This document shows positions 3,994 through 55,698 of a stretch of 64,000 nt of DNA, one piece after another; the stretch's first letter is position 1; each line of letters starts with the position of its first letter. The notes beneath the pieces are model-generated. The model was not told where the DNA came from and searched no databases. It was given only the letters and a program-made list of their open reading frames with translations. Where the stretch lies: contig JAHCLD010000001.1 in assembly GCA_026125585.1 (NCBI GenBank), positions 1,433-65,432 of the forward strand. The letters are read 5' to 3'. A program made the translations under genes and the position numbers. The stretch comes from Burkholderiales bacterium (GTDB lineage: Bacteria; Pseudomonadota; Gammaproteobacteria; Burkholderiales; SG8-41).

Positions 3994-6726
3994 ATGAAAA
4001 CCCTGCTACTCGTCGACGGTTCTTCCTATCTTTATCGCGCATTCCATGCGATACGCGAACTGAGCACCAGCCGCGGCGAGCCGACCAACGCCATCTACGG
4101 CGTGCTCAACATGCTGCGCCGGCTGCACAAGGACGTGCCGGCGGAGTACAGCGCCTGCGTGTTCGATGCCAAGGGCAAAACCTTCCGCGACGATCTTTAT
4201 CCCGAATACAAGGCCAACCGGCCGCCGATGCCCGACGAGCTGGCTTCGCAGATCGCGCCGCTGAAGGAGGCGATCGTCGCGATGGGCTGGCCGCTGCTCG
4301 AGGTCGAAGGCGTGGAGGCCGACGACGTGATCGGCACCCTGGCGCGCCAGGCCGAGCAGGCCGGCATGCGGGTGGTGATCTCCACCGGCGACAAGGACAT
4401 CACGCAACTGGTGACGCCGCAGGTGACGCTGGTCAACACCATGTCCAACGAAACGCTGGATGTGGCCGGCGTCGAAAAAAAATTCGGCGTACCGCCGGAA
4501 CGCATCATCGATTACCTGACACTGATCGGCGACAGTGTCGACAACGTGCCGGGCGTGCCGAAGGTCGGGCCGAAGACCGCGGTGAAATGGCTGGCGCAGT
4601 ACGGCACGCTGGACGACATCGTCAGGCACGCGCCCGACATCGGCGGCGCGGTCGGCCAGAACCTGCGCGATGCGCTGGACTGGCTGCCGCAGGCGCGGGA
4701 ACTGCTGACCATCCGCTGCGACGTGCCGCTGCCGGTGCGGCTGCAGGACCTGGCGCCGCAGCCGCAGGACCGGGAGAAACTCGCGACGCTGTTCGACCGT
4801 TTCGAATTCAGGACCTGGCGCCGCGAGCTCGACGGCGGCGAGGCCGCGGTGCCCGGGGCATCCGCCGCTACGCCGGCGGAAACGGCGCCGGTGCAGGCGG
4901 AGGCGCCCCAGCCTCGATCTCCGCGGCGTTATGAGACCGTGACCACGCCCGGGGCGCTGGCGCAATGGCTGGCGCGCATCGAAGCCGCGCCGCTGACCGC
5001 GGTGGATACCGAAACCACCAGCCTCGATGCGCTGGCGGCGGAACTGGTCGGCATTTCGCTGGCGGTGGAACCGGGGCAGGCTGCCTACATACCGGTGGGT
5101 CATGTCTATGCCGGCGCGCCGGAGCAGTTGCCGCGCGACCAGGTGCTGGCCGCGCTGAAACCCTGGCTGGAAAATCCGCAGCGCGCCAAGCTCGGCCAGC
5201 ACTTCAAGTACGACATGCACGTGTTCGCGAATTACGGCCTGCGGGTGGCCGGCGTGGCCCACGACACGCTGCTGGAGTCCTATGTCCTGGAAAGCCACCA
5301 GCGGCACGACATGGATTCCATGGCGCAAAGAATTTTATCAATAAAAACAATAACTTACGATGAAGTCACGGGCAAGGGTGCGAAACGCATCGGTTTCGAG
5401 CAGGTGGCCGTCGAGCACGCTGCCGAATATGCCGCCGAAGACGCGGACGTCACGCTGCAACTGCACCGCGCGCTGCAGCCGCGCGTCGCGGCGGACGCGA
5501 AACTGAACCATATCTACACCGACATCGAGATGCCGGCGATGCAGGTGCTGTACGCGATGGAATGCAACGGCGTGCTGCTCGACGAGAAACTGCTGGGCGA
5601 ACTGTCGGCGGAGTTCGGCGCCAAGATGCTCGACATCGAGAAGCGCGCGCACGAGCAGGCCGGCCAGCCGTTCAACCTCAGTTCGCCGAAACAGATCCAG
5701 GAAGTGCTGTTCGAAAAGCAGGGTCTGAAGCCGGTCAAGAAAACGCCTGGCGGGGCACCCTCCACCGACGAGGAATCGCTCGAAGAACTGGCGCTCGACC
5801 ACCCGCTGCCGAAGCTGATCCTCGACTACCGCGGGCTGGCGAAACTGAAGTCGACCTACACCGACAAGCTGCCCGGCATGGTCAACCGCAGGACCGGGCG
5901 CGTGCACACCAGCTACGGCCAGGCCACCGCGGTGACCGGGCGGCTGGCGAGCAGCGATCCCAACCTGCAGAACATCCCGATCCGCACCGCGGAAGGCCGG
6001 CGCATCCGCGAGGCCTTCGTCGCGCCGCCCGGCGCGCAGATCGTGTCGGCCGACTATTCGCAGATCGAGCTGCGCATCATGGCGCACATTTCGAAGGACG
6101 AAAGCCTGCTCGGGGCCTTCGCCGCCGGCGAGGACATCCACCGCGCGACCGCGGCGGAGATTTTCGGCGTCGACCTCGCCGCCGTCGACAGCGAGCAGCG
6201 GCGCTACGCCAAGGTCATCAACTTCGGCCTGATCTACGGCATGTCGGCCTTCGGGCTCGCCCGCCAGCTCGGCATCGAGCGCGCCGCCGCGCAGCAGTAC
6301 ATGGACCGCTATTTCCAGCGTTATCCGGGCGTCGCCGAATACATGCGCGTCACCCGCGAGCAGGCGCGCGAGCAGGGCTACGTCGAAACCGTGTTCGGCC
6401 GCCGGCTGTGGCTGCCGGAAATCCGCAGCAGCAACGCAGCGCGGCGCCAGGGCGCCGAACGCGCGGCGATCAACGCGCCGATGCAGGGCACCGCCGCCGA
6501 CCTGATCAAGCTGGCGATGATCGCCGTGCAGCGCTGGCTGACCGAAGAAGGGATGCAGTCGAAGCTGATCATGCAGGTGCACGACGAGCTGGTGCTGGAA
6601 GTGCCGGACGCGGAACTGGCTGCGGTCAAATCCGGACTGACGCGCCTGATGGGCGGCGTCGCCGAACTGGCGGTGCCGCTGCTGGTGGAAGTCGGCGCCG
6701 GTCCGGACTGGGACAAGGCGCACTGA
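3994..6726 (+). CDS. polA: DNA polymerase I
   Basis: ORF 3937..6726 trimmed to MKTLLLVDGSSYLYRAFHA (5' nuclease N-terminus). Has a 3'-5' exo region and polymerase motifs DYSQIELRIMAH, RRYAKVINFGLIYG, QVHDELVLE. Confidence 0.95.
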   Translation: MKTLLLVDGSSYLYRAFHAIRELSTSRGEPTNAIYGVLNMLRRLHKDVPAEYSACVFDAKGKTFRDDLYPEYKANRPPMPDELASQIAPLKEAIVAMGWPLLEVEGVEADDVIGTLARQAEQAGMRVVISTGDKDITQLVTPQVTLVNTMSNETLDVAGVEKKFGVPPERIIDYLTLIGDSVDNVPGVPKVGPKTAVKWLAQYGTLDDIVRHAPDIGGAVGQNLRDALDWLPQARELLTIRCDVPLPVRLQDLAPQPQDREKLATLFDRFEFRTWRRELDGGEAAVPGASAATPAETAPVQAEAPQPRSPRRYETVTTPGALAQWLARIEAAPLTAVDTETTSLDALAAELVGISLAVEPGQAAYIPVGHVYAGAPEQLPRDQVLAALKPWLENPQRAKLGQHFKYDMHVFANYGLRVAGVAHDTLLESYVLESHQRHDMDSMAQRILSIKTITYDEVTGKGAKRIGFEQVAVEHAAEYAAEDADVTLQLHRALQPRVAADAKLNHIYTDIEMPAMQVLYAMECNGVLLDEKLLGELSAEFGAKMLDIEKRAHEQAGQPFNLSSPKQIQEVLFEKQGLKPVKKTPGGAPSTDEESLEELALDHPLPKLILDYRGLAKLKSTYTDKLPGMVNRRTGRVHTSYGQATAVTGRLASSDPNLQNIPIRTAEGRRIREAFVAPPGAQIVSADYSQIELRIMAHISKDESLLGAFAAGEDIHRATAAEIFGVDLAAVDSEQRRYAKVINFGLIYGMSAFGLARQLGIERAAAQQYMDRYFQRYPGVAEYMRVTREQAREQGYVETVFGRRLWLPEIRSSNAARRQGAERAAINAPMQGTAADLIKLAMIAVQRWLTEEGMQSKLIMQVHDELVLEVPDAELAAVKSGLTRLMGGVAELAVPLLVEVGAGPDWDKAH
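5326..5364 (+). repeat. AT-rich box copy A, embedded in frame inside polA
   Basis: caa aga att tta tca ata aaa aca ata act tac gat gaa. Shares 22 identical nt (5336-5357) with copy D (42693-42714). Confidence 0.8.
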
Positions 6727-6755
6727 GGGCGCACTGAGGTCTTGCCGGGGCCGCC

Positions 6756-7577
6756 ATGACCGCGCAGTCCGACCACTGGAGCCAGCACGCGCGGCAATGG
6801 TCGCTGATCGGACCGCCGTTGCGTCCGGCGGCGGCGGACATCCGCTGGATTGAAACCAGGATTCGCGATTGGCAGCGCCAGGGCGGAGCGGTGATGCCAC
6901 GGGCGCTGCTGTGCGGCGTGACGCCGGAGATCGCGGGCATGCGCTGGCCGACCGGCACCCGGCTCGTCGCCGTCGACCACTCGCGGCCGATGATCGCCGG
7001 CGTGTGGCCCGCGGCTGCGGCGCCGGGCATTGCGGTATGCGGCGACTGGCTGTCGCTGCCGCTGGCGGACGCATCGCAGCAGTTGCTGGTCGGCGACGGC
7101 TGCCACAGCCTGCTGGTCGGCCGCGACCGCCATGCCGCGTTCACGCGGGAATTGCGCCGCGTCGCCGCGCCGGGGGCGCTGTTGCTGATGCGTCATTTCA
7201 CGCGCCCGGAGGCGGCGGAGCCGGTGGCCGCGGTCGTCGACGATCTGTGGCGCGGCCGCATCGGCAATTTTCACGTGTTCAAGTGGCGGCTGGCGATGGC
7301 GCTGCACGGCACGCCCGAGCAGGGCGTCCGGCTCGGCGACATCTGGAACGCCTGGCGCGAGGCGGTGCCCGATCCGGAGGTGCTGGCCGCGCAGCTCGGC
7401 TGGCGGACCGACGTCATCGCAACCATCGACAACTACCGCGATGTCGACACCCGCTACACTTTTCCGACGCGCGCCGAAGCGCGCGGCTTCGCCGCCGGTT
7501 TCGACGTCGTCGCCGAGCACCTGCCGGACTACGAACTCGGCGAGCGCTGTCCGACGCTGGCGATGCGCCCGCGATGA
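6756..7577 (+). CDS. putative SAM-dependent methyltransferase
   Basis: 273 aa. Weak class I methyltransferase-like core (ALLCGVTPEIAG ... LVAVDHS ... LLVGDGC). ATGA overlap with the next gene. Confidence 0.45.
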   Translation: MTAQSDHWSQHARQWSLIGPPLRPAAADIRWIETRIRDWQRQGGAVMPRALLCGVTPEIAGMRWPTGTRLVAVDHSRPMIAGVWPAAAAPGIAVCGDWLSLPLADASQQLLVGDGCHSLLVGRDRHAAFTRELRRVAAPGALLLMRHFTRPEAAEPVAAVVDDLWRGRIGNFHVFKWRLAMALHGTPEQGVRLGDIWNAWREAVPDPEVLAAQLGWRTDVIATIDNYRDVDTRYTFPTRAEARGFAAGFDVVAEHLPDYELGERCPTLAMRPR

Positions 7578-9628: not shown

Positions 9629-9669
9629 GACCGGACTCCCCATTTTCGTTTGATTGGCGGCATGCAGAA

Positions 9670-15475: not shown

Positions 15476-15783
15476 GGGCGGAAAAAGCCTGATTATAAGT
15501 CGGGAGTCATCGGTCGGGAGTGCGGGCGCACCCGGAAGCAGACCCCGTTGCGACGACGGAAGTTCCTTGCTGCCGGGGCGGCCGGAATCGCGGCGGCGGA
15601 CTGTTGCGGGCGGACATGCGCGCGGCCGGTTCGCGCGCCGGCCGCGTTCGCGGATCATCGGGCGTGCATGCCGTCGCGCAGCGCCGGCCCGCCGCCGCAG
15701 CGCGCCGTGTTCTCGACGGCGGCAGGTAACCGCCCCGTGCTTCGATGCCTGCCGGCCTGGGCATGCGATCTCCCGCTAAAATT

Positions 15784-15820
15784 AAAAATATTGTTTAAAA
15801 ACAAATACTTATAATTCTCC
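15784..15820 (+). repeat. AT-rich box copy B
   Basis: aaaaatattgtttaaaaacaaatacttataattctcc, immediately upstream of the hsp20 sigma-32-type promoter. Confidence 0.8.
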
Positions 15821-15839
15821 TTTCGATGTGGCGCGCACT

Positions 15840-15868
15840 CTTGAAAACCATGCCGGGACACCCATATT
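15840..15868 (+). promoter_or_regulatory. sigma-32 (RpoH)-type heat-shock promoter
   Basis: CTTGAAA - 14 nt - CCCATATT matches the CTTGAAA-N13-15-CCCCATNT consensus. It lies 49 nt upstream of the hsp20 ATG. Confidence 0.65.
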
Positions 15869-24048: not shown

Positions 24049-24130
24049 GATTTCAATGGATTTTTCAGAATATTGTGATGCAGTATAATTCTAAATCATT
24101 TCAACAGACTTGGGCGGTACCGGGAGATTC

Positions 24131-29492: not shown

Positions 29493-29530
29493 GCGGATAT
29501 CCTTAATTATCAATAACATGCGATATCCGC
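29493..29530. promoter_or_regulatory. 9-bp perfect inverted repeat GCGGATATC / GATATCCGC around a 20-nt AT-rich loop (weak AT-box copy G); a third CGGATAT half-site at 29531-29537
   Basis: Read directly from the sequence. Lies about 30 bp upstream of the mshE sigma-54 promoter, the position expected for an activator or IHF site. Confidence 0.5.
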
Positions 29531-32573: not shown

Positions 32574-32577
32574 CGGC

Positions 32578-36090: not shown

Positions 36091-36584
36091 AAATCAGGTC
36101 ACTCATCTCTGTCGCGCGCATGCGCGGTTTCAGCCTGGTGACCGGGATCTTCCTGCTGGTCGTGCTGTCGGCGCTGGGCGCGTTCATGGTGATGTTCACC
36201 GGCCTGCAGCAGAACACGGTCCAGGTCGATATCCTCGGCGTGCGCGCCTATTACGCGGCCCGTGCCGGACTGAACTGGGCGATGTACCGGGCGCTCGATC
36301 CCGATAATCCCAGCGCGACTGCGGCCGCCTGCCCCGTCGGCACGATCGCGCAGGGTGCCCTCGCCGGTTCGCTGGCGCCATTTTCGGTGACCGTGGAATG
36401 CGAGCCCTTCGATGCCACCGAAGCGAACCGGAACATCCGCGTGTACCGGATCACCGCAACCGCCTGCAATCAGGCGGTATGCCCCGGCACACCCGGCAAC
36501 GCCTACGTGGAGCGCCGCGTCGTCTCGACGCTGGCGAAGTGCAAGGATCCCTCGGCGCCATCGCCTTTCGAGTGTGGATTGTGA
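36087..36584 (+). CDS. mshP: pilin-like protein lacking Glu5 (MshP position)
   Basis: ATGA overlap with mshO. ARMRG/FSLVTGIFLLVVLSALGAFMV. Confidence 0.6.
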   Translation: MKIRSLISVARMRGFSLVTGIFLLVVLSALGAFMVMFTGLQQNTVQVDILGVRAYYAARAGLNWAMYRALDPDNPSATAAACPVGTIAQGALAGSLAPFSVTVECEPFDATEANRNIRVYRITATACNQAVCPGTPGNAYVERRVVSTLAKCKDPSAPSPFECGL

Positions 36585-36621
36585 AAATATTAAATAAAAA
36601 CAAATATTTATATAAATCTCC
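36583..36621 (+). repeat. AT-rich box copy C
   Basis: gaaaatattaaataaaaacaaatatttatataaatctcc. Begins inside the mshP stop codon. Confidence 0.8.
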
Positions 36622-36769
36622 TGGACGGTGTGGACCGCACCCGATCCTGCGACCCGGGAGAACGCTGATCGATGCTCGCGGATTGATCGCGGCCGGATGA
36701 ACCCTTGGCGACCTGCGATGGATGGGCATGGCAGGTCACCCGGACAGCAGACGGATTTCGACACATGCC

Positions 36770-37867
36770 ATGTTGAATCACCGAAAAATACCGCATTCTG
36801 GATATAAGCCGGATTGCCTTGAGCAGGTGGCCGGCATTTTCCGTGCTGGCATCCGGCTCGTATTGCCGTTTCTGGTGTGGGCGCTGTGTTCCACGCCGGC
36901 CTGGGCGCAGTGCACCAACTGCACGACGACCACGGTGGGCGGCGACACAGTCCACACGTTCATCGCGAACGGCACGTTCACGCCGCCGCCCGGTATCACC
37001 GCCGTGCGATATCTGGTGGTCGGTGGTGGCGGCGGCGGCGGCGGCGTCTTTAACGATACGAATGTTGGTGGTGCCGGTGGTGGCGGCGCGGGCGGCTACC
37101 AAGCTGGTACTGGGTTCACGGTCACTCCTGGGACGCCTTATGCCATTACCGTTGGTACCGGCGGGACCGCTGGCGTCGGCAACACGAGCCAAGGCGGGAG
37201 CGGCGGTTCTTCGATTTTCTCGACGATTACGGCGCAAGGCGGTGGTGGCGGCGGATCGGCCGGTGTCAGCAACAACGGTGTCAACGGCGCATCCGGTGGC
37301 GGCGGGCGTGTTGGCATTGCGGGTGGGACTGGGGTTGCCGGGCAGGGCAATAGCGGCGGTAGCGGCTATGCTTCGGGTGGCGCGGGCGGCGGCGGCGGCG
37401 CGGGTGGTGGCGGCGCCAACAGCGGCGGCACTGCGGGCGGCGGCGGCGGTAACGGTACCGCCAACGACATTACGGGTACGAACCTGACCTATGCAGGTGG
37501 CGGCGGTGGTGGTGGCTACGGGGCGACGGGTGGCGCGGGCGGTGGCGGCGTTGGTGGCGCGGGTGCCGGCACGCCGCGGGCTGCCGGTTCGCCGGGAATG
37601 GCAGGCCGCGGCATGCGGCGGCGTCGGGCAGTGCCGCCGAGCGGCGCGGCGCAGTGGTGTGGCGACTCGGGCGTGTCGTCGTGCGGTGAGCGCCTGTCGG
37701 GCGCTTTGCGGTTGCCACGGGTAACTGGAATGCGACCAGTACTTGGAGCGCTACCGGTTGCGGCGGTGCGGCCGGCGCGTCGGTGCCTGCGGCAGGAAGC
37801 GATGTCACGATTTGCAACACGCGCACGGTTACGCTTAACGCGAATACTACGAGCCTTGCCAGCCTGA
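36770..37867 (+). CDS. secreted poly-glycine-domain protein (3' part after about 37570 looks out of frame; possibly the N-terminal module of the following MshQ-like gene)
   Basis: Signal peptide ...LVLPFLVWALCSTPAWA/QC. GTFTPPPGITAVRYLVVGGGGGGGG followed by ~180 aa of G-rich repeats. The tail becomes Arg-rich (RGMRRRRAVPP...). Confidence 0.5.
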   Translation: MLNHRKIPHSGYKPDCLEQVAGIFRAGIRLVLPFLVWALCSTPAWAQCTNCTTTTVGGDTVHTFIANGTFTPPPGITAVRYLVVGGGGGGGGVFNDTNVGGAGGGGAGGYQAGTGFTVTPGTPYAITVGTGGTAGVGNTSQGGSGGSSIFSTITAQGGGGGGSAGVSNNGVNGASGGGGRVGIAGGTGVAGQGNSGGSGYASGGAGGGGGAGGGGANSGGTAGGGGGNGTANDITGTNLTYAGGGGGGGYGATGGAGGGGVGGAGAGTPRAAGSPGMAGRGMRRRRAVPPSGAAQWCGDSGVSSCGERLSGALRLPRVTGMRPVLGALPVAAVRPARRCLRQEAMSRFATRARLRLTRILRALPA

Positions 37868-40800
37868 CGATTCAGAACGGCGGCACGCTCAGCGTCGGCA
37901 ACAACAACACCGCCCGCACGATGACGATCACGGGCGATATCACCAACGCCGGTACCTTTCAGGTTGCCACCTCTTCCAATACCACGCATACGCTTAACGT
38001 TGGTGGTGACGTCGCCAACAGCGGCACGTTCAATCTGGCGACCGACGGCAACAGTCTGATGACTACCACCTGGACCGGGGGCGGTACGCACAACATTACC
38101 GGCACCGGGGCGATGACGTTCCACAATGTCACGGCGAACAATAACCTCGTCGTCAATAAGAGCGCGGGCACGATTACCCAGTCGGGGACGCTGACAGTCA
38201 ACGGCAATCTTACCGTCCAGGCAGGCACGCTGAACTTGGCCAACACCACGAGCGTGACGGGGGCGACCAGCATCAGCGGAACCCTGGGTCATACGACGAC
38301 GACAGGAACGCGGACGTTTACCGGCGCGGTGACGATCAACAATGGGGGCACCTGGGACAACACCGCCAACGAAGCGGTAACGATGGCGGACGATCTCATC
38401 AACAATGGCACCTTCAATTCCGGGACCGCCGCTTATACGTTTTCGGGGGCGGGTCAATGGGGCGGCAGCCAGCCGATTTCCTTCGGCGGCGCGGTCAACG
38501 TGACCGCCGGCGCGCGTGTGAACAACACGACGGTGACGGTGGCCGGTGCGCTGGCGTTGTCCGCCAACGTGACGCTGACCAATAACTCGACGGTCAGCGT
38601 GACCGGCGCCATCACCGGCGCCAACGCAACTACTTCAGTCTGGACAAACACCGCGAACTCCACGCTGAATGCCGGAGGGGCGCTGCTGACCACCGGCACG
38701 CTCAATGCCTCGGCCGGCGGCAACACGGTGCATTACAACGGTGCGGGCAACGTGGCCGTAAAGCTGCCTTCCGGCGGGAACTACTTCCATCTGACCCTCT
38801 CGACCGGTGGCACGAAGACGCCTGCGGCCGGTACCTACAACATCGGCGGCAACCTGACGATCAACGCCGGCCCGACTTTCAACGTGAACACGAGCGACCC
38901 GACGATCAATGTCGCGGGCAACGTCACGATCGCCGGGACTTATACCGCGAGCAACATCGCCGGCAGCCCGCTGACCATTGGCGGCGACATGACCATCAGC
39001 GGAACTTATACCGGCAACACGGCGCCGGTGAACCTGGCCGGGAATTTCACCGGTTCTGGAACCTTCACATCCGGCGCGGGCTTGTTCACGCTGAACGGGA
39101 CGGGCGCGCAGGTCATCGGCGGAACCGTTTCCCCGACGTTCACCAACCTCGCCGTCAACTCCGCCGGGGTCGCCCTGTCCGGCGTCAACGTCACCGTCGG
39201 CACGCTGCTGACGCTGACCAGCGGCGTCGTGACCACCGGCGCCAATGTCGTGGCCGTGACCGCTAACTGTCCGGGCAGCGTGTCGCGCGCGGCGGGTCAC
39301 ATCGCCGGTTTTCTGCGCCTGCGCATCCCGACCGGATCGCCGACCTGCCTGTTCCCCGTCGGCGATGCCGCCGGCTATCGGCCGGTCACGATCGCCTTCA
39401 CCACCGTGACCAACACCGGAACCCGCGACGTCACCGCCTCCGTCACGCAGGCCGCGGGCGAACATCCGAACATCGGCACTTCCACCATCGAGCCGATGCT
39501 CAACGTCAACCGCTATTGGACGCTGGCCAACAACACGACCTCGTTCACGTCCGCCGTGGCCACGTTCGCCTACGTTGCCGGCGACGCCGACACCGGGACC
39601 GACCAGACGCTGTTCATCGCCGGGCGCCATGCCTCGGGCACGTGGACCTATCCGTCGAGCAGCGCCAGCGCCGGCAGCGTGCAGGTTTCCGGGCTGGCCA
39701 CCGCCACGTTGGCGGGGGATTACGTGCTCGGCGAAACCGTGCCGGTGCTGTTCTCCCACTGGCGCATGGATCAGCCCGGCGGCTGGAACGGCGCGGCGAA
39801 CGAAGTGACTGACAGCGGCAGCGGCGGCTTCCACGGTGTCGCCGCCGGCCTGACCACGCGGCCGACGACCTCGGCCGCGAGTCCGGCGATCGCGGGTGAT
39901 CCCGGCACCTGCCAGTACGGCGTGTTCAACCGCTCGAACAAGGATTACGTCGCATTGCCTGCCGGATATCCCAATCTGATGTCGACGGCGGGCGGTTTCA
40001 CCGTGACGGCCTGGATCAACACGACCAACAGCGCATTGCCGGGGCAGCGCATATTCATCGACGACCAGAACAATACATCGCCCGGTGGCTGGGGATTCAG
40101 CGTGGGTGAAACAGACCGCGCCGGTGCCGGCGGGCTGCGCTTCTATTATCGGCAACCGACGGTGGTAACCGTTGATACTGTGGCGATTCCCAGCAACCAG
40201 TGGCTGTTTGTCGCCTTGACCGTGAACGTGGCTGCGGGCGCGAATGCAAGCCGCGCCACGCTGTATGCCTACAACACGGCCGGCGCGCTGGTGACGACGT
40301 ACACCCAGACTTTTACCTGGACGGCGGGTTCGGACGCCGGCCCCCCGTCGATCGGCGGCGAAACCAATGCCGCAGGCGAAAATACCGATGCCTTCGGTTT
40401 CAGCGGCAGCATCGACGAAGTGCGCGTCTACCAGCAGGCGCTGAGCCAGGGCCGCATCGAGCTGATCCGCCAGGATGCGCGCCCCTGCAATTTCCTGAAT
40501 CACATCCGCATCGAGCACGACGGGCTGGGGCTGACCTGCGCGCCGGAAACGGTGACCGTGAAGGCCTGCACCGACGCGCTCTGCACTAGCACCTACACCG
40601 GCAGCGTCACCACCACGCTGTCGCCGACCGGCTGGGTGGGCGGCAACACCATCACCTTCACCGGAACGGCCAATGTCGACTTGCGCCGGACCGCGCCGGG
40701 AATCGTCACGCTGGGCGCCGGCACCACATCGCCGCCGCCGACCTCGATCACGCGCTGTTTCAACGGCCTGCTCGAAACCTGCGACCTCGATTTCAGGAAC

Positions 40801-42570
40801 ACCGGTTTCCTGTTCAGCGCGATTCCTTCGCAGATCGCCGGCACCGTTTCGGCGACCCACACCGTGCAGGCGGTGCGCACCGACAACAACACCGGCGTGT
40901 GCACCGGCGTGTTCACCGGCAACGTGCCGAACATCGAACTGGCTTCTGAGTGTGTGAATCCGGGCGCCTGCCAGGCCGGGCAGCAGGTCACCTTCAACAA
41001 CAACGGGTCCGGCACCATCGCGGCGAACAACAGCGCCGCGGTGAACACCTGGACCACGCGCACGCTGACCTTCGGCGCCAACTCGACCGCCAGCTTCACC
41101 TTTGCCTATCCCGACGTCGGCGCGATCCGGTTGCACGCGCGCCACAACATCAACGGCTCGGGCGATTACATGACCGGCGCGTCCTCGAACGTGGTGGTCA
41201 GGCCCGCCGGCTTCACGGTCGGCAACATCCGCCGGGCTTCCGACAACGTCGCCAATCCCGGCGCGGCCAATGCCGGCGGCGCCGTGTTCATGAAGGCCGG
41301 CGAGAACATCGCGCTGACGGTGACCGCGGTGAACTCGCTGGGCGCCGCGACGCCCAATTTCGGCAAGGAAACGCCCGCGGAAGGCGCGCTGCTCGATTCG
41401 GCCCTGGTCGGCGGTCTCGGGCTGACCGCCAATCCCGGTCTCGGCAACAACCTGATCGCCGGCAGCGCGTTCACGGCGGGGGCCGCTGCGGTAAGCAACG
41501 TGACCTGGGGCGAGGTCGGCATCATCACCATCACGCCACGCCTCGGCGATGGCGATTACCTGGGGGCCGGCGACGTCATCGGCACGACGAGCGGCAACGT
41601 CGGCCGCTTCACGCCGCACAATTTCGCGGTGAGCGGCAACGCGCCGTCGTTCGTTCCGGCCTGTTCCGCCGGCGGATTCACCTACATCGGCCAGCCGTTC
41701 GCCTACGGCGTGGCGCCGGTGCTGACGGTCACCGCGCGCAACCTTGCCGGCGGAACGACCCAGAACTACAAGGGCCCGTTTTTCAAGATCACCAATGCCA
41801 GCCTCACCGGCAAGGCCTACACGGCGGCGACCGGAACGCTGGACGTCAGCGGCATCACGGGCGCCGATCCGGCGATCGCCGACAACAGCGACGGCACGGC
41901 GACCCTGACCTTCAATTCGGGCACCGGTCTCCTGTTCACGCGCTCGACGCCGGTTACGCCCTTCGATGCCGACATCTCGCTGGCGATCAACGTGATCGAT
42001 ACCGACAGTGTTGTCTACACCGCCAATCCGGCGCGTTTCGGACAGGCTGCCGCGGGCGACGGCATTGCATTCACCGGCGGCAAGGCCATGCGCTTCGGCC
42101 GGCTTCGTCTCGGCGGCGCCAGCGGCTCGCAACTCCTGCCGCTGCGCGTGCCGTTCGAAGCGCAGTACTGGTCGGGCGCGTTTTTCGAGACCAATACCGC
42201 GGATACCTGCTCCACGTTCGCGCCCGGCAATGTCGGCCTGGGCAACTTCATCGGCAACCTCAACGCCGGCGAGACCACGGTGACCGCGATCACCAGTCCG
42301 TTGCAGGGCGGACGCGGTTCGATCAGGCTCAGCGCGCCCGGCGCGGCGAACAATGGCAGCGTGGATGTCTCGCTGAACCTCGGCACCGGCGCCGCGGCCG
42401 ATGCCTGCCCGGCGTTCGCGCCGGCGGCAACGGCCGGCAACAGGGCCTATCTGCGGGGAAACTGGTGCGCGCCGCCCGGCGCGCATACCAGGGATCCCGC
42501 GGCCCGGGCGCGTTTCGGCATCCTGCGCGGCAGCGAGGAGACGATCTATATCCGCGAGACGGTGAACTGA
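37783..42570 (+). CDS. mshQ: giant MshQ-like pilus-associated protein 1 (beta-helix-like repeats, LamG domain about 39745-40488, MshQ-type C-terminal region)
   Basis: 1595 aa from the first in-frame start (GTG). The frame is already open and homologous from 37690. LamG hallmark SIDEVRVYQQALS. The C-terminal ~450 aa are closely paralogous to the next gene. Confidence 0.8.
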   Translation: MPAAGSDVTICNTRTVTLNANTTSLASLTIQNGGTLSVGNNNTARTMTITGDITNAGTFQVATSSNTTHTLNVGGDVANSGTFNLATDGNSLMTTTWTGGGTHNITGTGAMTFHNVTANNNLVVNKSAGTITQSGTLTVNGNLTVQAGTLNLANTTSVTGATSISGTLGHTTTTGTRTFTGAVTINNGGTWDNTANEAVTMADDLINNGTFNSGTAAYTFSGAGQWGGSQPISFGGAVNVTAGARVNNTTVTVAGALALSANVTLTNNSTVSVTGAITGANATTSVWTNTANSTLNAGGALLTTGTLNASAGGNTVHYNGAGNVAVKLPSGGNYFHLTLSTGGTKTPAAGTYNIGGNLTINAGPTFNVNTSDPTINVAGNVTIAGTYTASNIAGSPLTIGGDMTISGTYTGNTAPVNLAGNFTGSGTFTSGAGLFTLNGTGAQVIGGTVSPTFTNLAVNSAGVALSGVNVTVGTLLTLTSGVVTTGANVVAVTANCPGSVSRAAGHIAGFLRLRIPTGSPTCLFPVGDAAGYRPVTIAFTTVTNTGTRDVTASVTQAAGEHPNIGTSTIEPMLNVNRYWTLANNTTSFTSAVATFAYVAGDADTGTDQTLFIAGRHASGTWTYPSSSASAGSVQVSGLATATLAGDYVLGETVPVLFSHWRMDQPGGWNGAANEVTDSGSGGFHGVAAGLTTRPTTSAASPAIAGDPGTCQYGVFNRSNKDYVALPAGYPNLMSTAGGFTVTAWINTTNSALPGQRIFIDDQNNTSPGGWGFSVGETDRAGAGGLRFYYRQPTVVTVDTVAIPSNQWLFVALTVNVAAGANASRATLYAYNTAGALVTTYTQTFTWTAGSDAGPPSIGGETNAAGENTDAFGFSGSIDEVRVYQQALSQGRIELIRQDARPCNFLNHIRIEHDGLGLTCAPETVTVKACTDALCTSTYTGSVTTTLSPTGWVGGNTITFTGTANVDLRRTAPGIVTLGAGTTSPPPTSITRCFNGLLETCDLDFRNTGFLFSAIPSQIAGTVSATHTVQAVRTDNNTGVCTGVFTGNVPNIELASECVNPGACQAGQQVTFNNNGSGTIAANNSAAVNTWTTRTLTFGANSTASFTFAYPDVGAIRLHARHNINGSGDYMTGASSNVVVRPAGFTVGNIRRASDNVANPGAANAGGAVFMKAGENIALTVTAVNSLGAATPNFGKETPAEGALLDSALVGGLGLTANPGLGNNLIAGSAFTAGAAAVSNVTWGEVGIITITPRLGDGDYLGAGDVIGTTSGNVGRFTPHNFAVSGNAPSFVPACSAGGFTYIGQPFAYGVAPVLTVTARNLAGGTTQNYKGPFFKITNASLTGKAYTAATGTLDVSGITGADPAIADNSDGTATLTFNSGTGLLFTRSTPVTPFDADISLAINVIDTDSVVYTANPARFGQAAAGDGIAFTGGKAMRFGRLRLGGASGSQLLPLRVPFEAQYWSGAFFETNTADTCSTFAPGNVGLGNFIGNLNAGETTVTAITSPLQGGRGSIRLSAPGAANNGSVDVSLNLGTGAAADACPAFAPAATAGNRAYLRGNWCAPPGAHTRDPAARARFGILRGSEETIYIRETVN

Positions 42571-42680
42571 ACATGGCGAGAACGATCCCGGCGCGCGGTG
42601 TTCTGATTGCGGGGCCGTCCGATGGCGGCGGCCCGCGATGGCGGAATGCAAGGATCCAGCGGCTGCGTATTGTCACTGAC

Positions 42681-42723
42681 GATATAAAAAAATATCAATA
42701 AAAACAATAACTTAATTTGATAC
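42681..42723 (+). repeat. AT-rich box copy D
   Basis: gatataaaaaaatatcaataaaaacaataacttaatttgatac. Ends 1 nt before the ATG at 42724. Confidence 0.8.
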
Positions 42724-45700
42724 ATGGTATCTGCAGCTCAAAGCTGCCCAAGCTTTATGAACATGAAAATGCTTGCTGCTCGGAATGATTCGGAAGGCCG
42801 GACCGGCGAACGCGGCTTGGCTGCGTGCTTTCTGTTTCTGTTGTTCGCGGCGATGCTGGTCTTCGGCTTGGCCGGAGCGAACGACGTGCGGGCGGCGGCG
42901 CCGACGTTTCAGGCGGCGGGCACGCAGCAGAGCGGCACGGGCAATGTCACCGTGCCGTGGCCTGCGCACGTGGCGGGTGATGTCGCGCTGCTCTTCATCG
43001 AGAGCACGGGAGGACAGGCGGCCAATCTCGGGACCGCCAATGGATTCGTTGCGGTTGCCAACAGTCCCCAGAATACGGGCACCGGCACAAACGGGACGCG
43101 ACTGACCGTGTACTGGGCGCGTGCCACGTCGGCTGCCATGGCTTCTCCGGTGGTGACCGATCCGGGCAATCACGTCTATGCCCGCATCCTGACCTATCGT
43201 GGCGTCATCGGTGCTGGCAATCCGTGGGACGTGACCGGTGGTGGCGTCAAGGCCACAGCCAGCACTTCAGTCACGGTGACGGGTGTGACGACAACGGTGC
43301 CGGATACGCTGATTGTGCAGGCCGTGGCGCGCGACAACGATTCGGCAGCGGCGGCATTCGGTACCCCGACCAATGCCAATCTGACAGGAATCACCGAACG
43401 CTCTGATGCGGGCACGACCTCGGGCAATGGCGGCGGTATCGGCATCTGGGATGGCGTCAAAGCAACTGCGGGTGCGACCGGAAACACGACTGCCACGGTA
43501 ACCAGCTCCATCAACGCATTCCTGACCATCGCGCTCAGGCCGCCACCGCCGAACTATTACAGCCGCAACGGCGGCGGCAACTGGTCGGCGACCGCGACCT
43601 GGAGCAACACGGCGTGTAACGGCGCGGCAGGCGCGACGATCCCGCATGCCGACGCGACGGTCACCATCTGCAACAACGACACGGTCACGCTGAACCAGAA
43701 TGCGACCATTGCCGAGTTGATCGTGGGCAGCGGGAACAACAATTCCACACTGACGCATACGGGGAGCAATGCGCTGACGACCGGCGGTGTCACGTTCAAC
43801 CGGGGCACCGGCGGCACCAAGGCCTGGAACGTCAACGCCGGCAGTGCAACGGTCAACGGCAACGTGGTGATGGGCAGTTGGACCAACGGCATTGCGCGGA
43901 TCCAGTTGACCAGCGGCACGCTGGACATCAACGGCGACCTGGGTTTCTTCAACAACACGCTGGGGCAGGCCGTCATCGATGCCAGTGGCGGCGCGGCAAA
44001 CATCTTCCTGTCCGGCGCGATGACCGATCTCGGCAATGCCCAGATCCTGCCGGGCACGGCCAGCACCTTCACCTACGACGGTGGCAACCAGAGCGTGTGG
44101 CTGGGCGTCGGCGGCATCAGTTACTACAACCTGACGCTCGCCGGCAGCGGCACCAAGCAGCAGCAGTACGGCGGCGCGGCCACGGTCGGCGGCGCGACGA
44201 CTGTCAATGCCGGCGTGACGTTCACCAACTCCGGGGCCGTCACTTTTTCCGGGGCCTTCGTCAACAACGGCACGACCAACGCCAGCCAGACCAACGATTA
44301 CCAGGGCAGCTTCACCAACGCCGGTACCTATACCAGCAGCGCCGGCGGCGGGCAGAACTACCGCGGCAATTTCAGCAACAGCGGCACGTTCAATGCGGGC
44401 AGCGCGCAGCACCGCTTCAACGGCAGCGCGCTGCAGACGCTGACGGGCGCGACCACCTTCCAGAACCTGGAAGTGAACAACAGCGCGGGGCTGGTCATCA
44501 ACAGCAACGTGACGGTGACGACGCAGGCGACACTGACCGGCGGCGTGGTCACGACCGGCGCCAACGTGTTCATCGTGCAGCAGACGACCTGGAGCGGGGT
44601 GAGCCGCGGCAGCGGCTATATCAACGGCAATCTGCGCCTGCGCATGCCGACCGGCGGCACGTCGCGCGTGTTCGACGTCGGCGGCGCGAACGGCTATCGT
44701 CCGGTGACGGTGGCGTTCGCCAATATCACCACGCAGGGCGATCTGACCGTTTCGGTCAGCGACCCCGGCGGCGATCATCCGGATATCGGTGCCTCCTCGA
44801 TCGATCCGGCAAAAAGCGTCAATCGCTGGTGGACGCTGACCAACGGCGGCATCGCGTTCAGCGGCAATTACAGCGTCGTCTTCAATTACCTGGCGGGCGA
44901 TATCGACGGCGGTGCCAATCCCGCGCAGTTCAACATCCAGCGTTTCAGCGGCGGGACTTGGAACGATGTCACGACCGGCAACCGCACCGGCACCAGCATC
45001 GAGGGCACGGGGCTGAGCGCCTTCGGCGCGTTCGCCATCGGGCAGCGCCTGATCCTGACCACCTGTCCCGCCGGCGGAGAGCTGATTCCCGGACTGTTCG
45101 GCTCGTACTACAACGTCACCGGCGGCTTCCCGCCGGCGCGCCCCTCGGGATTGCCGAACGGCACGCGCGCCGACGGCCCGGTGGACTTCAACTGGGCCGC
45201 CGCCGCGCCCGGCGTGAGCGGCATCGGTGCCAACCAGTTTTCGGTACGCTGGGACGGCTACATCTATGTCACGGTCAGCGGCAACTACCAGTTCCAGACC
45301 GAGTCGGACGACGGCGTGCGGCTGTGGGTCAACGACATGACGACGCCGGTGATCGACAACTGGACCGACCATTCCGCGGCTACGGACACCAGCGCCAACG
45401 TGGCATTGACGGCGGGACAGTTCTACCCGATCCGGCTGGAGTTCTACGAGAACGGCGGCGACGCGGTCATCCGCCTGCGCTGGCGCTTGCCCAGCAGCGG
45501 TTCCTATGTCGCGATTCCCGCGGGCCCGGTGCCGACGCCGGGGGCGGGGCTGTACCACTGCAGCGAGCAGCAGGTCCCGGGCCTGCTGGCGCATTACGCC
45601 ATGGACGAAGCCGCGTGGAACGGCACGACCGGCGAAGTCAAGGATGCGAGCGGCAACAACCGCCACGGCACCGCGCTCGCGCCCAACGGGCCGGCCACGG

Positions 45701-48351
45701 CCAACACGGCGCCCGCGCGCCCGGGCAATCCCGGCACCTGCGGCTATGGCGTGTTCGACGGCAGCAACGATTACGTCACCGTGCCGAATCTGCAGACGAT
45801 CCTCGGCGGCACGGCGAGCCTCGCGTTCTGGATCCGGACGACGCAGGGCGGCAACAACACGGCCTGGGAGGCGCCGGGCGTGACCGGCGTGGAGGAGAGC
45901 GGCGGCGGCAACGACGTGTTCTGGGGATTCCTGCGCGGCAACGGCCGCATCGCGATCCAGAAGGGGAACGGCGCTTACGCGGAATCGGCGGCGGCGGTCA
46001 ACAACGGCAACTGGCAGCACGTGGTGCTGACACGCAATGCCACGAGCGGCGCGGTGCAGGTGTATCTGAACGGCAGCCTGTCCGGCTCCGCGACCGGCGA
46101 GACGGGCACGGTGACCACGGCGTTCTCGAGCATCGGGCGGATCGAGGACACCGGCGGCACGCCCATGTACTTCAACGGCCAGATCGACGAGATGCGTGTT
46201 TACGACCGTGTGCTGACCACCGCCGAGGTTGCCGTCGTTTACGATCTCAAGCGTCCCTGCGACGTGGAGGCCCTCGACCATATCCGCATCACACACGGCA
46301 GCGGCAGCGGCCTGACCTGCAATCCGTCGACGCTGACGATCCGCGCCTGCGCGAATGCCGATTGCACGATCGAATACACGGGCGGCGTGGCCGGATCGCT
46401 GACCGCGACCGGCGCGACGACGAACTTTGCGGGCGGCGCTGGTTTTGCGATTGCCTCGGGTTTGGGGGCCGTCACCAAGGACATCCAGGTGACGGCGACG
46501 CCCAGCGCGATGATCGGCGCGACCAGCATCAGTCCAGCACCGGTCAACCCGGTGGCCTGCAATTTTGGCACGCCCGCCTGCACCTTCACGGCGGCGGATT
46601 CGGGTTTCGTGTTCGACGTGCCGGATCATGTGTCGGACACGATCCAGAGTTCCATTACCATCTCCGCCGTGCGCAAGGACGATACGAGCCAGCGCTGCGT
46701 GCCGGCATTCCAGAGCACGACCAAGACGGTCGGTTTCTGGTCGAACTACCTGAATCCGGCCACCGGTTCGCTCGCGGTCAGCGTCAATGGCAACAACATT
46801 TCCGGAACCAGTCCCGGAACCGGCATGAATCTGAACTTCAACGCCTCCGGCGAGGCGACGATACAGGTGCGGTATCTCGACGTCGGCCGGATGCGGCTGC
46901 ACGCGCGCCACGACGGTTCGGGTATCGCCGGGGGGCTGGTGATGCTGGGGCAGGATGAATTCGTCAGCAAACCCGCAGGCTTCGTGATTTCGGGCATACA
47001 GAGAACCGCCGACAGTTTCGCCAATCCGGCGGCGGCCAATGCCGCCGGCGCGGTGTTCATCCGCGCCGGCGAAAACATCACGCTGACCGTGACTGCGCGC
47101 AATGCCAGCAACAACGCGACGCCCAACTTCGGCAGGGAGTCGCCCGCGGAAGGCGTGCAACTGACATCCGCGCTGGTCGGCGGGCTCGGGCTCAGCGCCA
47201 ATCCCGCGCTTGGCAATGGCCTGATCGCGGGCGCCGCGTTTACCGCCGGATCGGCTACGGCGACCAACGTGACCTGGGGCGAGGTCGGCATCATCACCCT
47301 CACGCCGCACCTCGGCGACGGCGATTACCTCGGTACCGGCGACGTCATCGGCACGGCGAGCGGCAATGTCGGGCGTTTCATCCCGCACAATTTCGCGGTT
47401 GCGTTCAACGATCCGGCGTTCGCGACGGCCTGCACCGCGGGCGGATTCACCTATGTCGGACAGCCTTTCGTTTACGCCACGGGGATGTCGCCGGTGCTGA
47501 CGGCCACCGCGCGCAATCTTGCCGGGGGGACGACGCTGAATTACCGGGGCACTTCGCCGGCGTCCCAGGCGTTTTTCAAGATCACCAACGGCTCGCTGAC
47601 CGGCAAGGCATATTCCGCGGCCAGCGGCACGCTCGATGTCAGCGGAATCACCGGGACGGACCCCGTCATCGTGGACAACGGCAACGGCACGGCGACCCTG
47701 ACGTTCAACTCCGGCAGCGGGCTGGCGTTCACGCGCGGCAATCCCGTGTCGCCGTTCGATGCCGAAATTTCGCTGGCCATCAACGTGCTCGATACCGACG
47801 GTGTCGCGTATTCGTCGAATCCGGCGAGATTCGGACAGGCCAGCGCCGGCAACGGCATCGATTTTCCGGACGGAAAGGCCATGCGTTACGGCCGTGTGCG
47901 GCTGACGGGCGCCAGCGGATCGCAGGTGTTGCCGCTCCGGGTGCCTTTCGAGGCCCAGTACTGGACAGGCACGTTCTTTGCAACGAACACCCTCGATACC
48001 TGTACAACACTGAGCGCAGGCAACGTGGGCATGGGCAATTACATCGGCAACCTGAACGCAGGCGAAACCACCGTGACATCGATCACGGCGCTATCCGCGG
48101 GACGCGGCACCATCGTCCTGGGAGCGCCCGGAGCGGGCAACAACGGCAGCGTCGATCTTGCCTTCAACCTCGGCGATGGCACAGTTGCTGCGGCCTGCCC
48201 GTCTTTTGCGCCGAATGCCGGCGCGGGCAACCTGCCGTGGCTGCGCGGCCAGTGGTGTGGCGCCGCCCATGACCGGGATCCGTCGGCCAGAGCGCGCTTC
48301 GGCATACGCGGCGGCGGCGACGAGCGGATTTATATACGTGAAAATTATTAA
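42724..48351 (+). CDS. mshQ: giant MshQ-like pilus-associated protein 2 (novel N-terminal module, beta-helix-like repeats, PA14 domain about 45091-45525, LamG about 45583-46250, MshQ-type C-terminal region)
   Basis: 1875 aa. PA14-like GLFGSYYNV...FSVRWDGYIYV...YQFQTESDDGVRLWVND...YPIRLEFYENGG. LamG hallmark QIDEMRVYDRVLT. Start could also be 42757/42763. Confidence 0.8.
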   Translation: MVSAAQSCPSFMNMKMLAARNDSEGRTGERGLAACFLFLLFAAMLVFGLAGANDVRAAAPTFQAAGTQQSGTGNVTVPWPAHVAGDVALLFIESTGGQAANLGTANGFVAVANSPQNTGTGTNGTRLTVYWARATSAAMASPVVTDPGNHVYARILTYRGVIGAGNPWDVTGGGVKATASTSVTVTGVTTTVPDTLIVQAVARDNDSAAAAFGTPTNANLTGITERSDAGTTSGNGGGIGIWDGVKATAGATGNTTATVTSSINAFLTIALRPPPPNYYSRNGGGNWSATATWSNTACNGAAGATIPHADATVTICNNDTVTLNQNATIAELIVGSGNNNSTLTHTGSNALTTGGVTFNRGTGGTKAWNVNAGSATVNGNVVMGSWTNGIARIQLTSGTLDINGDLGFFNNTLGQAVIDASGGAANIFLSGAMTDLGNAQILPGTASTFTYDGGNQSVWLGVGGISYYNLTLAGSGTKQQQYGGAATVGGATTVNAGVTFTNSGAVTFSGAFVNNGTTNASQTNDYQGSFTNAGTYTSSAGGGQNYRGNFSNSGTFNAGSAQHRFNGSALQTLTGATTFQNLEVNNSAGLVINSNVTVTTQATLTGGVVTTGANVFIVQQTTWSGVSRGSGYINGNLRLRMPTGGTSRVFDVGGANGYRPVTVAFANITTQGDLTVSVSDPGGDHPDIGASSIDPAKSVNRWWTLTNGGIAFSGNYSVVFNYLAGDIDGGANPAQFNIQRFSGGTWNDVTTGNRTGTSIEGTGLSAFGAFAIGQRLILTTCPAGGELIPGLFGSYYNVTGGFPPARPSGLPNGTRADGPVDFNWAAAAPGVSGIGANQFSVRWDGYIYVTVSGNYQFQTESDDGVRLWVNDMTTPVIDNWTDHSAATDTSANVALTAGQFYPIRLEFYENGGDAVIRLRWRLPSSGSYVAIPAGPVPTPGAGLYHCSEQQVPGLLAHYAMDEAAWNGTTGEVKDASGNNRHGTALAPNGPATANTAPARPGNPGTCGYGVFDGSNDYVTVPNLQTILGGTASLAFWIRTTQGGNNTAWEAPGVTGVEESGGGNDVFWGFLRGNGRIAIQKGNGAYAESAAAVNNGNWQHVVLTRNATSGAVQVYLNGSLSGSATGETGTVTTAFSSIGRIEDTGGTPMYFNGQIDEMRVYDRVLTTAEVAVVYDLKRPCDVEALDHIRITHGSGSGLTCNPSTLTIRACANADCTIEYTGGVAGSLTATGATTNFAGGAGFAIASGLGAVTKDIQVTATPSAMIGATSISPAPVNPVACNFGTPACTFTAADSGFVFDVPDHVSDTIQSSITISAVRKDDTSQRCVPAFQSTTKTVGFWSNYLNPATGSLAVSVNGNNISGTSPGTGMNLNFNASGEATIQVRYLDVGRMRLHARHDGSGIAGGLVMLGQDEFVSKPAGFVISGIQRTADSFANPAAANAAGAVFIRAGENITLTVTARNASNNATPNFGRESPAEGVQLTSALVGGLGLSANPALGNGLIAGAAFTAGSATATNVTWGEVGIITLTPHLGDGDYLGTGDVIGTASGNVGRFIPHNFAVAFNDPAFATACTAGGFTYVGQPFVYATGMSPVLTATARNLAGGTTLNYRGTSPASQAFFKITNGSLTGKAYSAASGTLDVSGITGTDPVIVDNGNGTATLTFNSGSGLAFTRGNPVSPFDAEISLAINVLDTDGVAYSSNPARFGQASAGNGIDFPDGKAMRYGRVRLTGASGSQVLPLRVPFEAQYWTGTFFATNTLDTCTTLSAGNVGMGNYIGNLNAGETTVTSITALSAGRGTIVLGAPGAGNNGSVDLAFNLGDGTVAAACPSFAPNAGAGNLPWLRGQWCGAAHDRDPSARARFGIRGGGDERIYIRENY

Positions 48352-48374
48352 TCAAAACAATGGATTAACTTTCC
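48340..48374 (+). repeat. AT-rich box copy E (degenerate)
   Basis: gaaaattattaatcaaaacaatggattaactttcc. Its 5' part encodes the last codons and the stop of MshQ-like 2. Confidence 0.6.
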
Positions 48375-48410
48375 CGATCGTGCGGCGTCGTGCAAATACG
48401 CCGTAAGTCT

Positions 48411-48438
48411 TTGACAACATTGGAAAATATGTTAGTTT
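48411..48438 (+). promoter_or_regulatory. sigma-70-like promoter for the mshI-N assembly operon
   Basis: TTGACA - 16 nt - TAGTTT, 41 nt upstream of the ATG at 48479. Confidence 0.45.
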
Positions 48439-48478
48439 GGGAAAATTTTGTGACTTTGCGCACAGCGATCAGACGAAG

Positions 48479-52902: not shown

Positions 52903-52914
52903 CAGGCCCGCGCC

Positions 52915-54914: not shown

Positions 54915-54929
54915 ACGCCGCCGCGGCGG

Positions 54930-55637
54930 TCAGCCGCCGGCGGTACGCGCGATCACGTAACCCGTCACGCTGGAGGCGCCCGCGCGTTTCAGGTTGCGCG
55001 CGACCTCGCCGAGCGTCGCGCCGGTGGTGAGCACGTCGTCGACGACGGCGACGTGGCGGCCGTCGAGGCTGCCGAGCACGACAAAGGCGCCGCGGATGTT
55101 CTTGCGCCGCGTTTTCCAGGGCAGGCGGGTTTGCGGTGCCGTGTCGCGGGTCTTGATGCACAGCCCCGGGTCCACCGGGACATTCAGTTTTCTGCCGATG
55201 ATCCGCGCCAGTTCGAGCGCCTGGTTGAAGCCTCGTTCGCGCAGGCGCTGCGCGGTGAGTGGGACCGGCAGGATCAGGTCGGGGCGCGTCCGGATGCGCG
55301 GCAGGAGCAGCGCGGCCAGCGCCGGGCCGGTGGCGAGACGCCCGCCGTACTTGTAGGCCTGGATCAACCCGTCCAGCGGGAAGGCGTAACGGCAGGCGGT
55401 GACGATGCGGTCGTAATGCGGGGGTTCGGCGATGCAGCGGCCGCAGATGCCCGGGTCCGACAGCGGATGGGCGCAGATGCGGCAGGCCGCCGCATCCAGC
55501 CATGGCAGATCGCCGAGGCAGACTTCGCACAGGTTGCGACGGCCGGCGGGAGCGGCGCAGAGCAGGCAGCGGCTCGCCAGCATGCGCGCCAGTCTTGCCC
55601 CCAACTTGTCAAACAGATGATTTGCGCTATTTGACAA
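54930..55637 (-). CDS. comF: ComF-family phosphoribosyltransferase-domain protein
   Basis: N-terminal Cys clusters (CLLC, CEVC, CRIC, CGRC). PRTase loop [17 protein letters not shown] start (ATG alternative at 55583). Confidence 0.8.
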
Positions 55638-55659
55638 GAATAAGGTCTTCCGCGATAAT

Positions 55660-55698
55660 GGATATATATAAGTATTTGTTTTTATTGATATTTTTAAG
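55660..55698 (-). repeat. AT-rich box copy F (inverted orientation)
   Basis: Minus strand reads cttaaaaatatcaataaaaacaaatacttatatatatcc. Lies in the comF/bioB divergent intergenic region. Confidence 0.8.

Follow-up and report, generated by a model that had tools for sequence, protein, structure and literature searches.

What is the short A+T-rich box that recurs along an otherwise G+C-rich stretch of a Burkholderiales genome, and what could recognize it? The stretch, called the window below, comprises 64,000 nucleotides of Burkholderiales bacterium (assembly GCA_026125585.1, contig JAHCLD010000001.1, positions 1,433 to 65,432 of the forward strand) and has a G+C content of 66%. An initial annotation reported the box at six places (A to F) together with a weak seventh copy (G), and offered three explanations: a site for a nucleoid protein such as integration host factor (IHF), an UP-element-type promoter module, or a tag resembling a DNA uptake signal. 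We found that boxes A to F belong to one sequence family that extends into related bacteria, and that the boxes are probably a dispersed family of strong, full-geometry IHF sites, occurring about once per 10 kb. IHF is a heterodimer that bends DNA by ~160 degrees.

All seven strings quoted in the initial annotation were found in place by a direct sequence check. Scanning for A+T islands (30-bp segments with at least 25 A/T) returned six islands in the window, and these are exactly box A (5328..5367, + strand), box B (15782..15821, +), box C (36581..36620, +), box D (42685..42724, +), box E (48338..48377, +) and box F (55659..55698, − strand). G (29497-29526) emerges only at the laxer setting of at least 23/30, as do 24044-24111 and 48419-48453. 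With up to three mismatches allowed, the pattern AATAAAAACAAWWAYTTA picks out five of the boxes, namely A, B, C and D (+) and F (−), where shuffles would yield 0. With a position weight matrix made from the relatives, A, B, C, D and F score 48–62 and E scores 23.6, and G obtains no score. A relaxed IHF core, WAWCAANNNNTTR, matches the window at exactly A to F (0.32 matches expected). Since the relaxed core fits these six and no other site, E is a genuine though degenerate copy and G lies outside the family: of the membership proposed originally, A to F stand and G drops out. What box E preserves is its A-tract, its AA steps and the consensus positions, and it is the family-specific N positions that have drifted. 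The G+C-richer 3' tail once described as common to B, C and E is not kept in orthologous copies of B, and is probably a coincidence.

The consensus of the family is aTAAAAATATCAATAAAAACAAATACTTAt, an asymmetric A+T island of ~38 bp. In an alignment of 46 G+C-rich copies, the island has sharp limits at about −11 and +26, counted from the 18-mer, with nothing conserved beyond. The window PolA is 100% identical to the protein of a 'Burkholderiales bacterium' metagenome-assembled genome (MAG), and all close PolA homologues come from uncultured Burkholderiales/Betaproteobacteria. The exact 18-mer was found at at least 118 loci in a scan of one genome per species; among the matches listed, ~40 are G+C-rich (56–69%) and belong nearly all to uncultured Burkholderiales/Betaproteobacteria MAGs, and the remaining listed matches, in A+T-rich genomes, are due to chance. 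The matrix scan added ~24 non-ascertained copies in ~310 kb of related loci (2–3 copies per 20-kb syntenic locus), and the density over the 64-kb window and ~400 kb of related loci is ~1 copy per 10 kb. Lineage 'dialects' of the box exist, with ...TAGTTA in place of ...TACTTA, and also a AAAATCAA dialect. Inverted repeats of at least 8 bp flank 12% of the boxes as compared to 11% of control positions; with no excess over background, the box is not a unit of the repetitive extragenic palindrome (REP), bacterial interspersed mosaic element (BIME) or MITE (small transposable element with inverted repeats) type. A scan of the window against Rfam returned no family and a literature search for the box sequence strings returned no match, in agreement with the earlier view that the box is not a catalogued repeat; for Betaproteobacteria, the literature on IHF sites or uptake sequences yielded nothing specific.

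Of the three original proposals, IHF has the strongest support, once its register is corrected. TATCAA had been taken as the WATCAA element and the TTR element had been called absent; the true register lies 9 nt downstream of TATCAA and reads AA(A/T)CAA-N4-TTA, corresponding to WATCAANNNNTTR. A canonical IHF site spans 34–35 bp and contains WATCAA, TTR and, where the prolines intercalate, two AA steps with a separation of 9 bp; some IHF sites carry a tract of 4–6 A in the other (5') half (PMC1874591; bioRxiv 10.1101/382655). At one fixed register, 63 of 66 boxes fit WATCAANNNNTTR with at most one mismatch, including 5 that fit it perfectly via the AAAATCAA dialect (AATCAA). TTA occupies core positions 15–17 in all six window boxes, 4 bp after the hexamer, as TTR does. 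In the unbiased position matrix, a run of A is seen at −9 to −6 (14 to 11 nt upstream of W, giving the 8-bp spacing), and half of the boxes have at least four consecutive A. AA steps are located at core positions 0–1 and 9–10, 9 bp apart (box B has TT at 0–1, as in lambda H'). The conserved extent is asymmetric and, at ~38 bp, comparable with that of the canonical site. All four elements at their proper distances are present in 33 of the 66 boxes versus 0.24% of composition-matched shuffles (any register, either strand). Among other candidates, which were compared by eye only, none of the DnaA box, Fis, H-NS, LytTR, ArcA and PmrA-type repeats fitted.

Conservation at orthologous sites, one of the checks proposed by the initial annotation, was found at two loci. 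The first is polA (3994-6726), and here the initial annotation had overlooked that box A (core AAACAATAACTTA at 5345-5357) lies within the reading frame and is no intergenic island. It encodes RILSIKTITYD, in the context ...AQ-RILSIKTITYDE-VTGKG..., and the segment aligns without gaps with the E. coli Klenow fragment (RWLKHKTITFEE). Its codons are rare ones in the window (TTA makes up 0.5% of Leu codons, and TCA, AGA, ATA and ACA have frequencies of 1%, 1.1%, 3.8% and 3.2%, respectively). The box is kept, synonymous sites included, in nine orthologues with 76–100% protein identity from genomes of 51–67% G+C: over the 11 box codons of these nine, the third position is A/T in 94% of cells versus 21% for the gene, and the box is the most extreme third-position A/T window of polA. 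The coding copy follows the dialect of its genome, as those with ...TAGTTA boxes have AGT (Ser) in place of ACT (Thr) in polA. Judged from these alignments, the polA copy is no insertion; it would have arisen in place through codon choice and been kept across lineages whose PolA proteins are 76% identical. A programmed frameshift or a rare-codon pause specific to polA was considered and rejected, since the same 22-mer is found in the intergenic box D.

The second locus is hsp20. Box B (core AAACAAATACTTA at 15799-15811) lies in the divergent spacer between a gene for a PBP5-type carboxypeptidase (−) and hsp20 (+), the latter assigned from Pfam, and the box is found in 6 species despite divergence of the surrounding spacer. 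In the window, 28 bp separate its end from a sigma-32-like promoter downstream (CTTGAAA...CCCATAT, ~15840-15868); across the species, the distance is 28–30 bp (four species) or 41–43 bp (two species). Its centre falls near −80 of the hsp20 heat-shock promoter, and by this position it may have a local role there. The sigma-32-type promoter itself (CTTGAAA-N-CCCATAT) precedes hsp20 in all six species, i.e. at 15840-15868 of the window and in the related loci L119, L120, L123, L124 and L125. We note that several relatives have a gene pair for an extracytoplasmic function (ECF) sigma factor and its anti-sigma factor between the carboxypeptidase gene and hsp20, which is missing from the window and from L119.

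For the gene context of boxes in related loci, we used a simple codon-bias gene finder written for the purpose, whose calls are crude. Out of ~34 independent copies, ~20 are in tandem spacers (in either orientation), 9 are in convergent spacers and ~1 is in a divergent spacer, with occasional copies inside genes; in the window itself, 2/6 copies are in divergent spacers and 1/6 is in coding sequence. Many boxes abut stop codons, and frequently a box occupies the entire spacer and even provides the stop codon. Coding overlaps are found on both strands, including the N-terminus of a lipoprotein (MKKSIKTNTY, in the same frame as SIKTITY of polA) and, on the antisense strand, a signal peptide (KLLFLLIF) encoded across the box. 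Orientation relative to the coding strand of the neighbors is 33:33, and relative to GC skew, checked in independent loci for a strand bias with replication as had been proposed, it is 26:20, again without bias.

These contexts narrow down the possible roles of the box. Its convergent contexts, unbiased orientation and coding overlaps rule out that it works in general as a promoter, UP element or RNA-level signal, and point to a signal at the DNA level. The UP-element proposal in particular is not supported: where a promoter is visible, the box ends 28–44 bp upstream of the −35 hexamer and does not abut it as an UP element should, 9 of the ~34 copies are convergent and orientation is random. 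A replication-oriented signal (KOPS, Chi or Ter type) was rejected given the 26:20 ratio and a skew without a switch inside the window, and a transcript-sense signal or promoter was rejected on the 33:33 ratio and the convergent contexts.

Gain and loss of copies is indicated by uvrD, where a box follows the stop codon in three relatives and is lacking in the window and two others. In two related loci (L121, 7534-7640, and L123, ~7437-7500), a long G+C-rich hairpin, GCCGATGAACGCAGA…TCTGCGTTCATCGGC, bordered on either side by A/T runs, comes after the post-uvrD box and probably serves the convergent gene pair as a bidirectional terminator. In L008 (~3473-3510), a short tandem repeat of gacgcagattaac (~3 copies) directly follows a box. 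In L001 (~3500-3620, reverse), a non-conserved in-frame stretch of Mfd, …DKNNNKNNYLEETPSPTLGRERVGVRVG…, consists of a box and then a palindrome rich in G+C, CCCTCTCC…GGGAGAGGG; the stretch resembles a composite insertion that a linker has tolerated.

The motif is also found in phages. In IMG/VR, 91 contigs that vary widely in G+C content carry the 20-mer TCAATAAAAACAAWWASTTA, and among phage contigs of 40–50% G+C it is found in ~15 distinct families, as compared to ~1 expected by our own rough composition estimate. In five distinct phage families, ORF inspection and Pfam place a tyrosine integrase gene 60–570 nt from the 20-mer; one of these is lambda-type with an Arm-DNA-bind_1 domain, and another is P4-type and adjoins a 3' end resembling that of a tRNA/tmRNA, much as an attachment site would. 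A tRNA scan near the phage copies returned no complete tRNA, and that 3' end, beside one integrase, was the only such feature seen. BLAST searches with two of the integrases returned just their own families. The best GenBank phage match lies at an annotated attR, next to the integrase gene in Moraxella phage Mcat8. The arms of attachment sites are the classical place of IHF sites (bioRxiv 10.1101/382655). Copies near integrases in phages of varied G+C content favor a general host factor over a tag of one clade.

Putting these together, we infer a site that would be read as follows, from 5' to 3' on the A-rich strand: a tract of 4–6 A, an 8-bp spacer in which one AA kink step lies, AA(A/T)CAA as the core with its own AA step 9 bp from that one, four looser bases and TTA. 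Such predicted sites would be placed chiefly in short spacers between genes, many of them at gene 3' ends, and would be held by selection on the DNA, even in polA, whose conserved peptide KTIT(Y)D is by chance one that the core can encode. Their function would be architectural. At hsp20, the msh pilus operon and comF/bioB, the bend would fall either ~75–95 bp upstream of a promoter or a short way downstream of one, and could modulate its activity; where genes converge, the sites may be akin to the IHF sites of E. coli RIB/BIME-1, serving as organisers of the nucleoid or of topological domains.

Several observations weigh against this reading. The hexamer is AAACAA in most copies, a 5/6 match to WATCAA with A for T at position 3. 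A WATCAANNNNTTR-type 13-mer with at most one mismatch is present in 15% of shuffled A+T-rich 40-mers, so the core match is weak by itself and it is the combined geometry, rare in shuffles, that carries the weight. The boxes strongly conserve positions (TCAATAA, ATAC) at which the E. coli consensus has 'N', and the family is far more uniform than known IHF recognition needs, with an information content of ~38–46 bits (inflated, as the copies were pre-selected at a matrix score of at least 38) versus the ~13 bits needed for one site per 10 kb. No gene of the HU/IHF type was found in the retrieved stretches of these genomes; that the genomes carry ihfA/ihfB is presumed from what is generally known of Proteobacteria. 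Finally, the association with integrases comes from five families and a rough chance estimate. The conserved N positions and the excess information imply that something beyond the E. coli-type readout of IHF acts on the boxes, the alternatives being an IHF that is stricter in this clade, an additional binder, or copying as the means of spread.

The same observations lend themselves to another binder particular to the lineage, either a nucleoid or architectural protein or IHF with a partner, with the likeness to IHF sites being partial or coincidental. Such a binder would account for why positions left unread by E. coli IHF are conserved, for the excess information and for the A at the third core position, and also for the near confinement of the exact 18-mer, among the G+C-rich matches listed, to uncultured Burkholderiales/Betaproteobacteria MAGs. 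We consider it unlikely, given that an unrelated protein would leave unexplained the four-element geometry (shuffle frequency 0.0024), the near-identity of the core with lambda H1 and the phage copies next to integrases. The uptake-tag proposal lost ground as well, and in our judgment is now quite improbable. Under it, the box would be the preferred substrate of the competence machinery, built up by biased uptake and recombination wherever tolerated, compatible coding sequence included, which agrees with its orientation neutrality, its lineage dialects, an information content far above what its frequency needs, and its presence in coding DNA where the peptide permits (KTITY of polA, MKKSIKTNTY of the lipoprotein, antisense signal peptides). 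Copies also lie in or beside polA, uvrD, mfd, fpg, radC, comEC and comF, and uptake sequences of Neisseria are reportedly biased toward genome-maintenance genes (a finding attributed to Davidsen et al. 2004); in an unbiased sample, however, repair and competence genes make up ~4/70 flanking genes, which is not clearly above background. Moreover, a density of ~1 per 10 kb is about 10-fold below the ~1 per kb of the uptake sequences of Neisseriaceae (DUS) and Pasteurellaceae (USS), the motif is about twice as long as known uptake cores and reproduces the full IHF geometry, and a clade-specific tag would not be expected beside integrases in unrelated phages of differing G+C content.

Spread without a host function, as a selfish or neutral interspersed repeat (MITE-like or REP-like) moved by transposition, would explain near-identical copies with sharp boundaries, their variable presence at orthologous sites such as the one after uvrD, and the mfd insertion, in which the box is paired with a G+C-rich palindrome. 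We give this very little credence: the boxes have no terminal inverted repeats and no excess of flanking palindromes, the polA copy shows no insertion and no indel relative to the Klenow fragment, and the hsp20 copy is kept in 6 species while its flanks have diverged. Equally hard to sustain is a promoter module (UP element or A+T-rich promoter) or an RNA-level signal in transcripts. Boxes B, E and F are near promoter-like sequences and D is just upstream of a start codon, but the nine convergent copies, the even orientation, the antisense boxes inside coding regions and the gap to the −35 hexamer all speak against it, the 46-copy alignment has no conserved −10-like hexamer downstream of the box, and no Rfam family matches. 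Returning to the IHF site as the preferred reading, a bolder form of it is conceivable though doubtful: the boxes may exceed ordinary IHF sites and form a lineage-wide set of several hundred near-identical architectural sites, with a recognition code stricter than any described for IHF, upheld by selection on chromosome organization or by a drive-like process (biased uptake or gene conversion) that would override codon usage in polA across lineages with 76%-identical PolA.

The remaining boxes of the window have the following neighbors. Box C (core AAACAAATATTTA at 36598-36610) overlaps the stop codon of a pilus-cluster gene (36120-36584). Box D (core AAACAATAACTTA at 42702-42714) is located between two tandem MshQ-like genes (37783-42570 and 42724/42757-48351), both of which contain the Pfam domains DUF6701 and Laminin_G_3, so that boxes C and D flank the first of the two. 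These giant paralogues (37783-48351) encode proteins of 1595 and ~1865 aa with Laminin_G_3 and a C-terminal DUF6701, the second having an additional PA14/GLEYA domain; they are found within a type IV pilus cluster resembling that of the mannose-sensitive hemagglutinin (MSHA), and both proteins end in ...IYIRE.... A glycine-rich ORF at 36722-37867, missed by the custom gene finder, may be part of the first paralogue. Box E (core AAACAATGGATTA at 48355-48367) overlaps, with its A-tract, the last codons and the stop codon of the second MshQ-like gene, and a TTGACA hexamer preceding mshI is 44 bp downstream of it. After this hexamer, and shortly before the mshI-like gene, comes a small palindrome, AACATTGGAAAATATGTT, and the segment (48411-48440) may be a promoter with an operator.

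Box F (core AAACAAATACTTA at 55669-55681, − strand) lies in the divergent spacer of comF and bioB, whose products were assigned as ComF-type and BioB proteins via Pfam. On the + strand, it is between a strong sigma-70-like promoter at 55631-55659 (TTGACA-17-GATAAT, 11/12 matches, with TTGACA at 55631-36 and GATAAT at 55654-59) and the probable start codon of bioB, and on the other strand it lies upstream of comF. An inverted repeat, TTGTCAAA-N16-TTTGACAA (55606-55637), overlaps this promoter just upstream of bioB, and the two together look like a BirA-type biotin operator and promoter. The sole other sizeable A+T-rich gap in the window (at the laxer setting) is 24044-24111, a divergent spacer with neither a box nor an IHF-type core, and is probably an ordinary promoter region.

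Should the binding of IHF be confirmed, the boxes would provide a clean natural family of stand-alone, reiterated IHF sites in a G+C-rich lineage, free of REP or MITE scaffolding, and with it a sharp view of a fully specified IHF site. They would also be ready markers of nucleoid and topological-domain organization in uncultured bacteria, and polA would be a clear case of dual coding, with eleven positions in an essential enzyme held to codons of ~0.5–4% frequency (AGA, TTA, TCA, ATA, ACA, ACT) for the DNA to serve as a protein-binding site as well. Conservation past the known IHF consensus raises a testable question, namely whether indirect readout or a co-binder is responsible.

Among known systems, the IHF sites of lambda attP share with the boxes the form of the 13-bp core, AA/TT steps 9 bp apart and an extent of ~34–38 bp. 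Lambda H' (AAAAAA-gcattgct-TATCAATTTGTTG) has its A-tract 8 bp before W and its TT step placed as in the boxes, and lambda H1 (AATCAACTACTTA) is identical at 12/13 positions to the box dialect AATCAAATACTTA and at 11/13 to the main form (AAACAAATACTTA was also compared). Unlike the lambda sites, the boxes are chromosomal, exist in hundreds of near-identical copies, mostly have A at core position 3 and conserve the 'N' positions. DUS and USS, which occur ~1 per kb and have a core of 9–12 bp, resemble the boxes in being orientation-neutral, over-represented, split into dialects and present in coding DNA where the peptide permits; the boxes are ~10 times sparser, much longer (core of at least 18 bp), wholly A+T-rich, built on the IHF geometry and present in unrelated phages. 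In E. coli, the L linker of BIME-1 contains an IHF site known as the RIB/RIP element (Boccard & Prentki 1993, as cited in PMC3333891). RIBs and boxes are alike in being reiterated and conserved chromosomal sites of the IHF type, largely outside genes, with copy numbers of the same order (~1 per 10 kb for the boxes, tens to hundreds per genome for RIB). RIBs are frequent 3' of transcription units; of the independent boxes 9 are convergent and ~1 divergent, but the window has 2 of 6 in divergent spacers and 1 in coding sequence. The two differ in that RIBs sit between two inverted REP palindromes, whereas the boxes have no flanking palindromes or conserved flanks and are found in coding sequence as well. 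The Correia elements of Neisseria (PMC2649163) are likewise dispersed repeats of Betaproteobacteria with an IHF site (a predicted one in the boxes) that can adjoin promoters, but they are mobile MITE-like units of 70–157 bp with terminal inverted repeats and promoter-forming ends, as opposed to a bare ~38 bp without inverted repeats. The boxes have the architecture of the site in common with the lambda sites, BIME-1/RIB and the Correia elements; what sets them apart from these is that they are bare, with neither REPs nor inverted repeats, far more uniform, and embedded in an essential gene.

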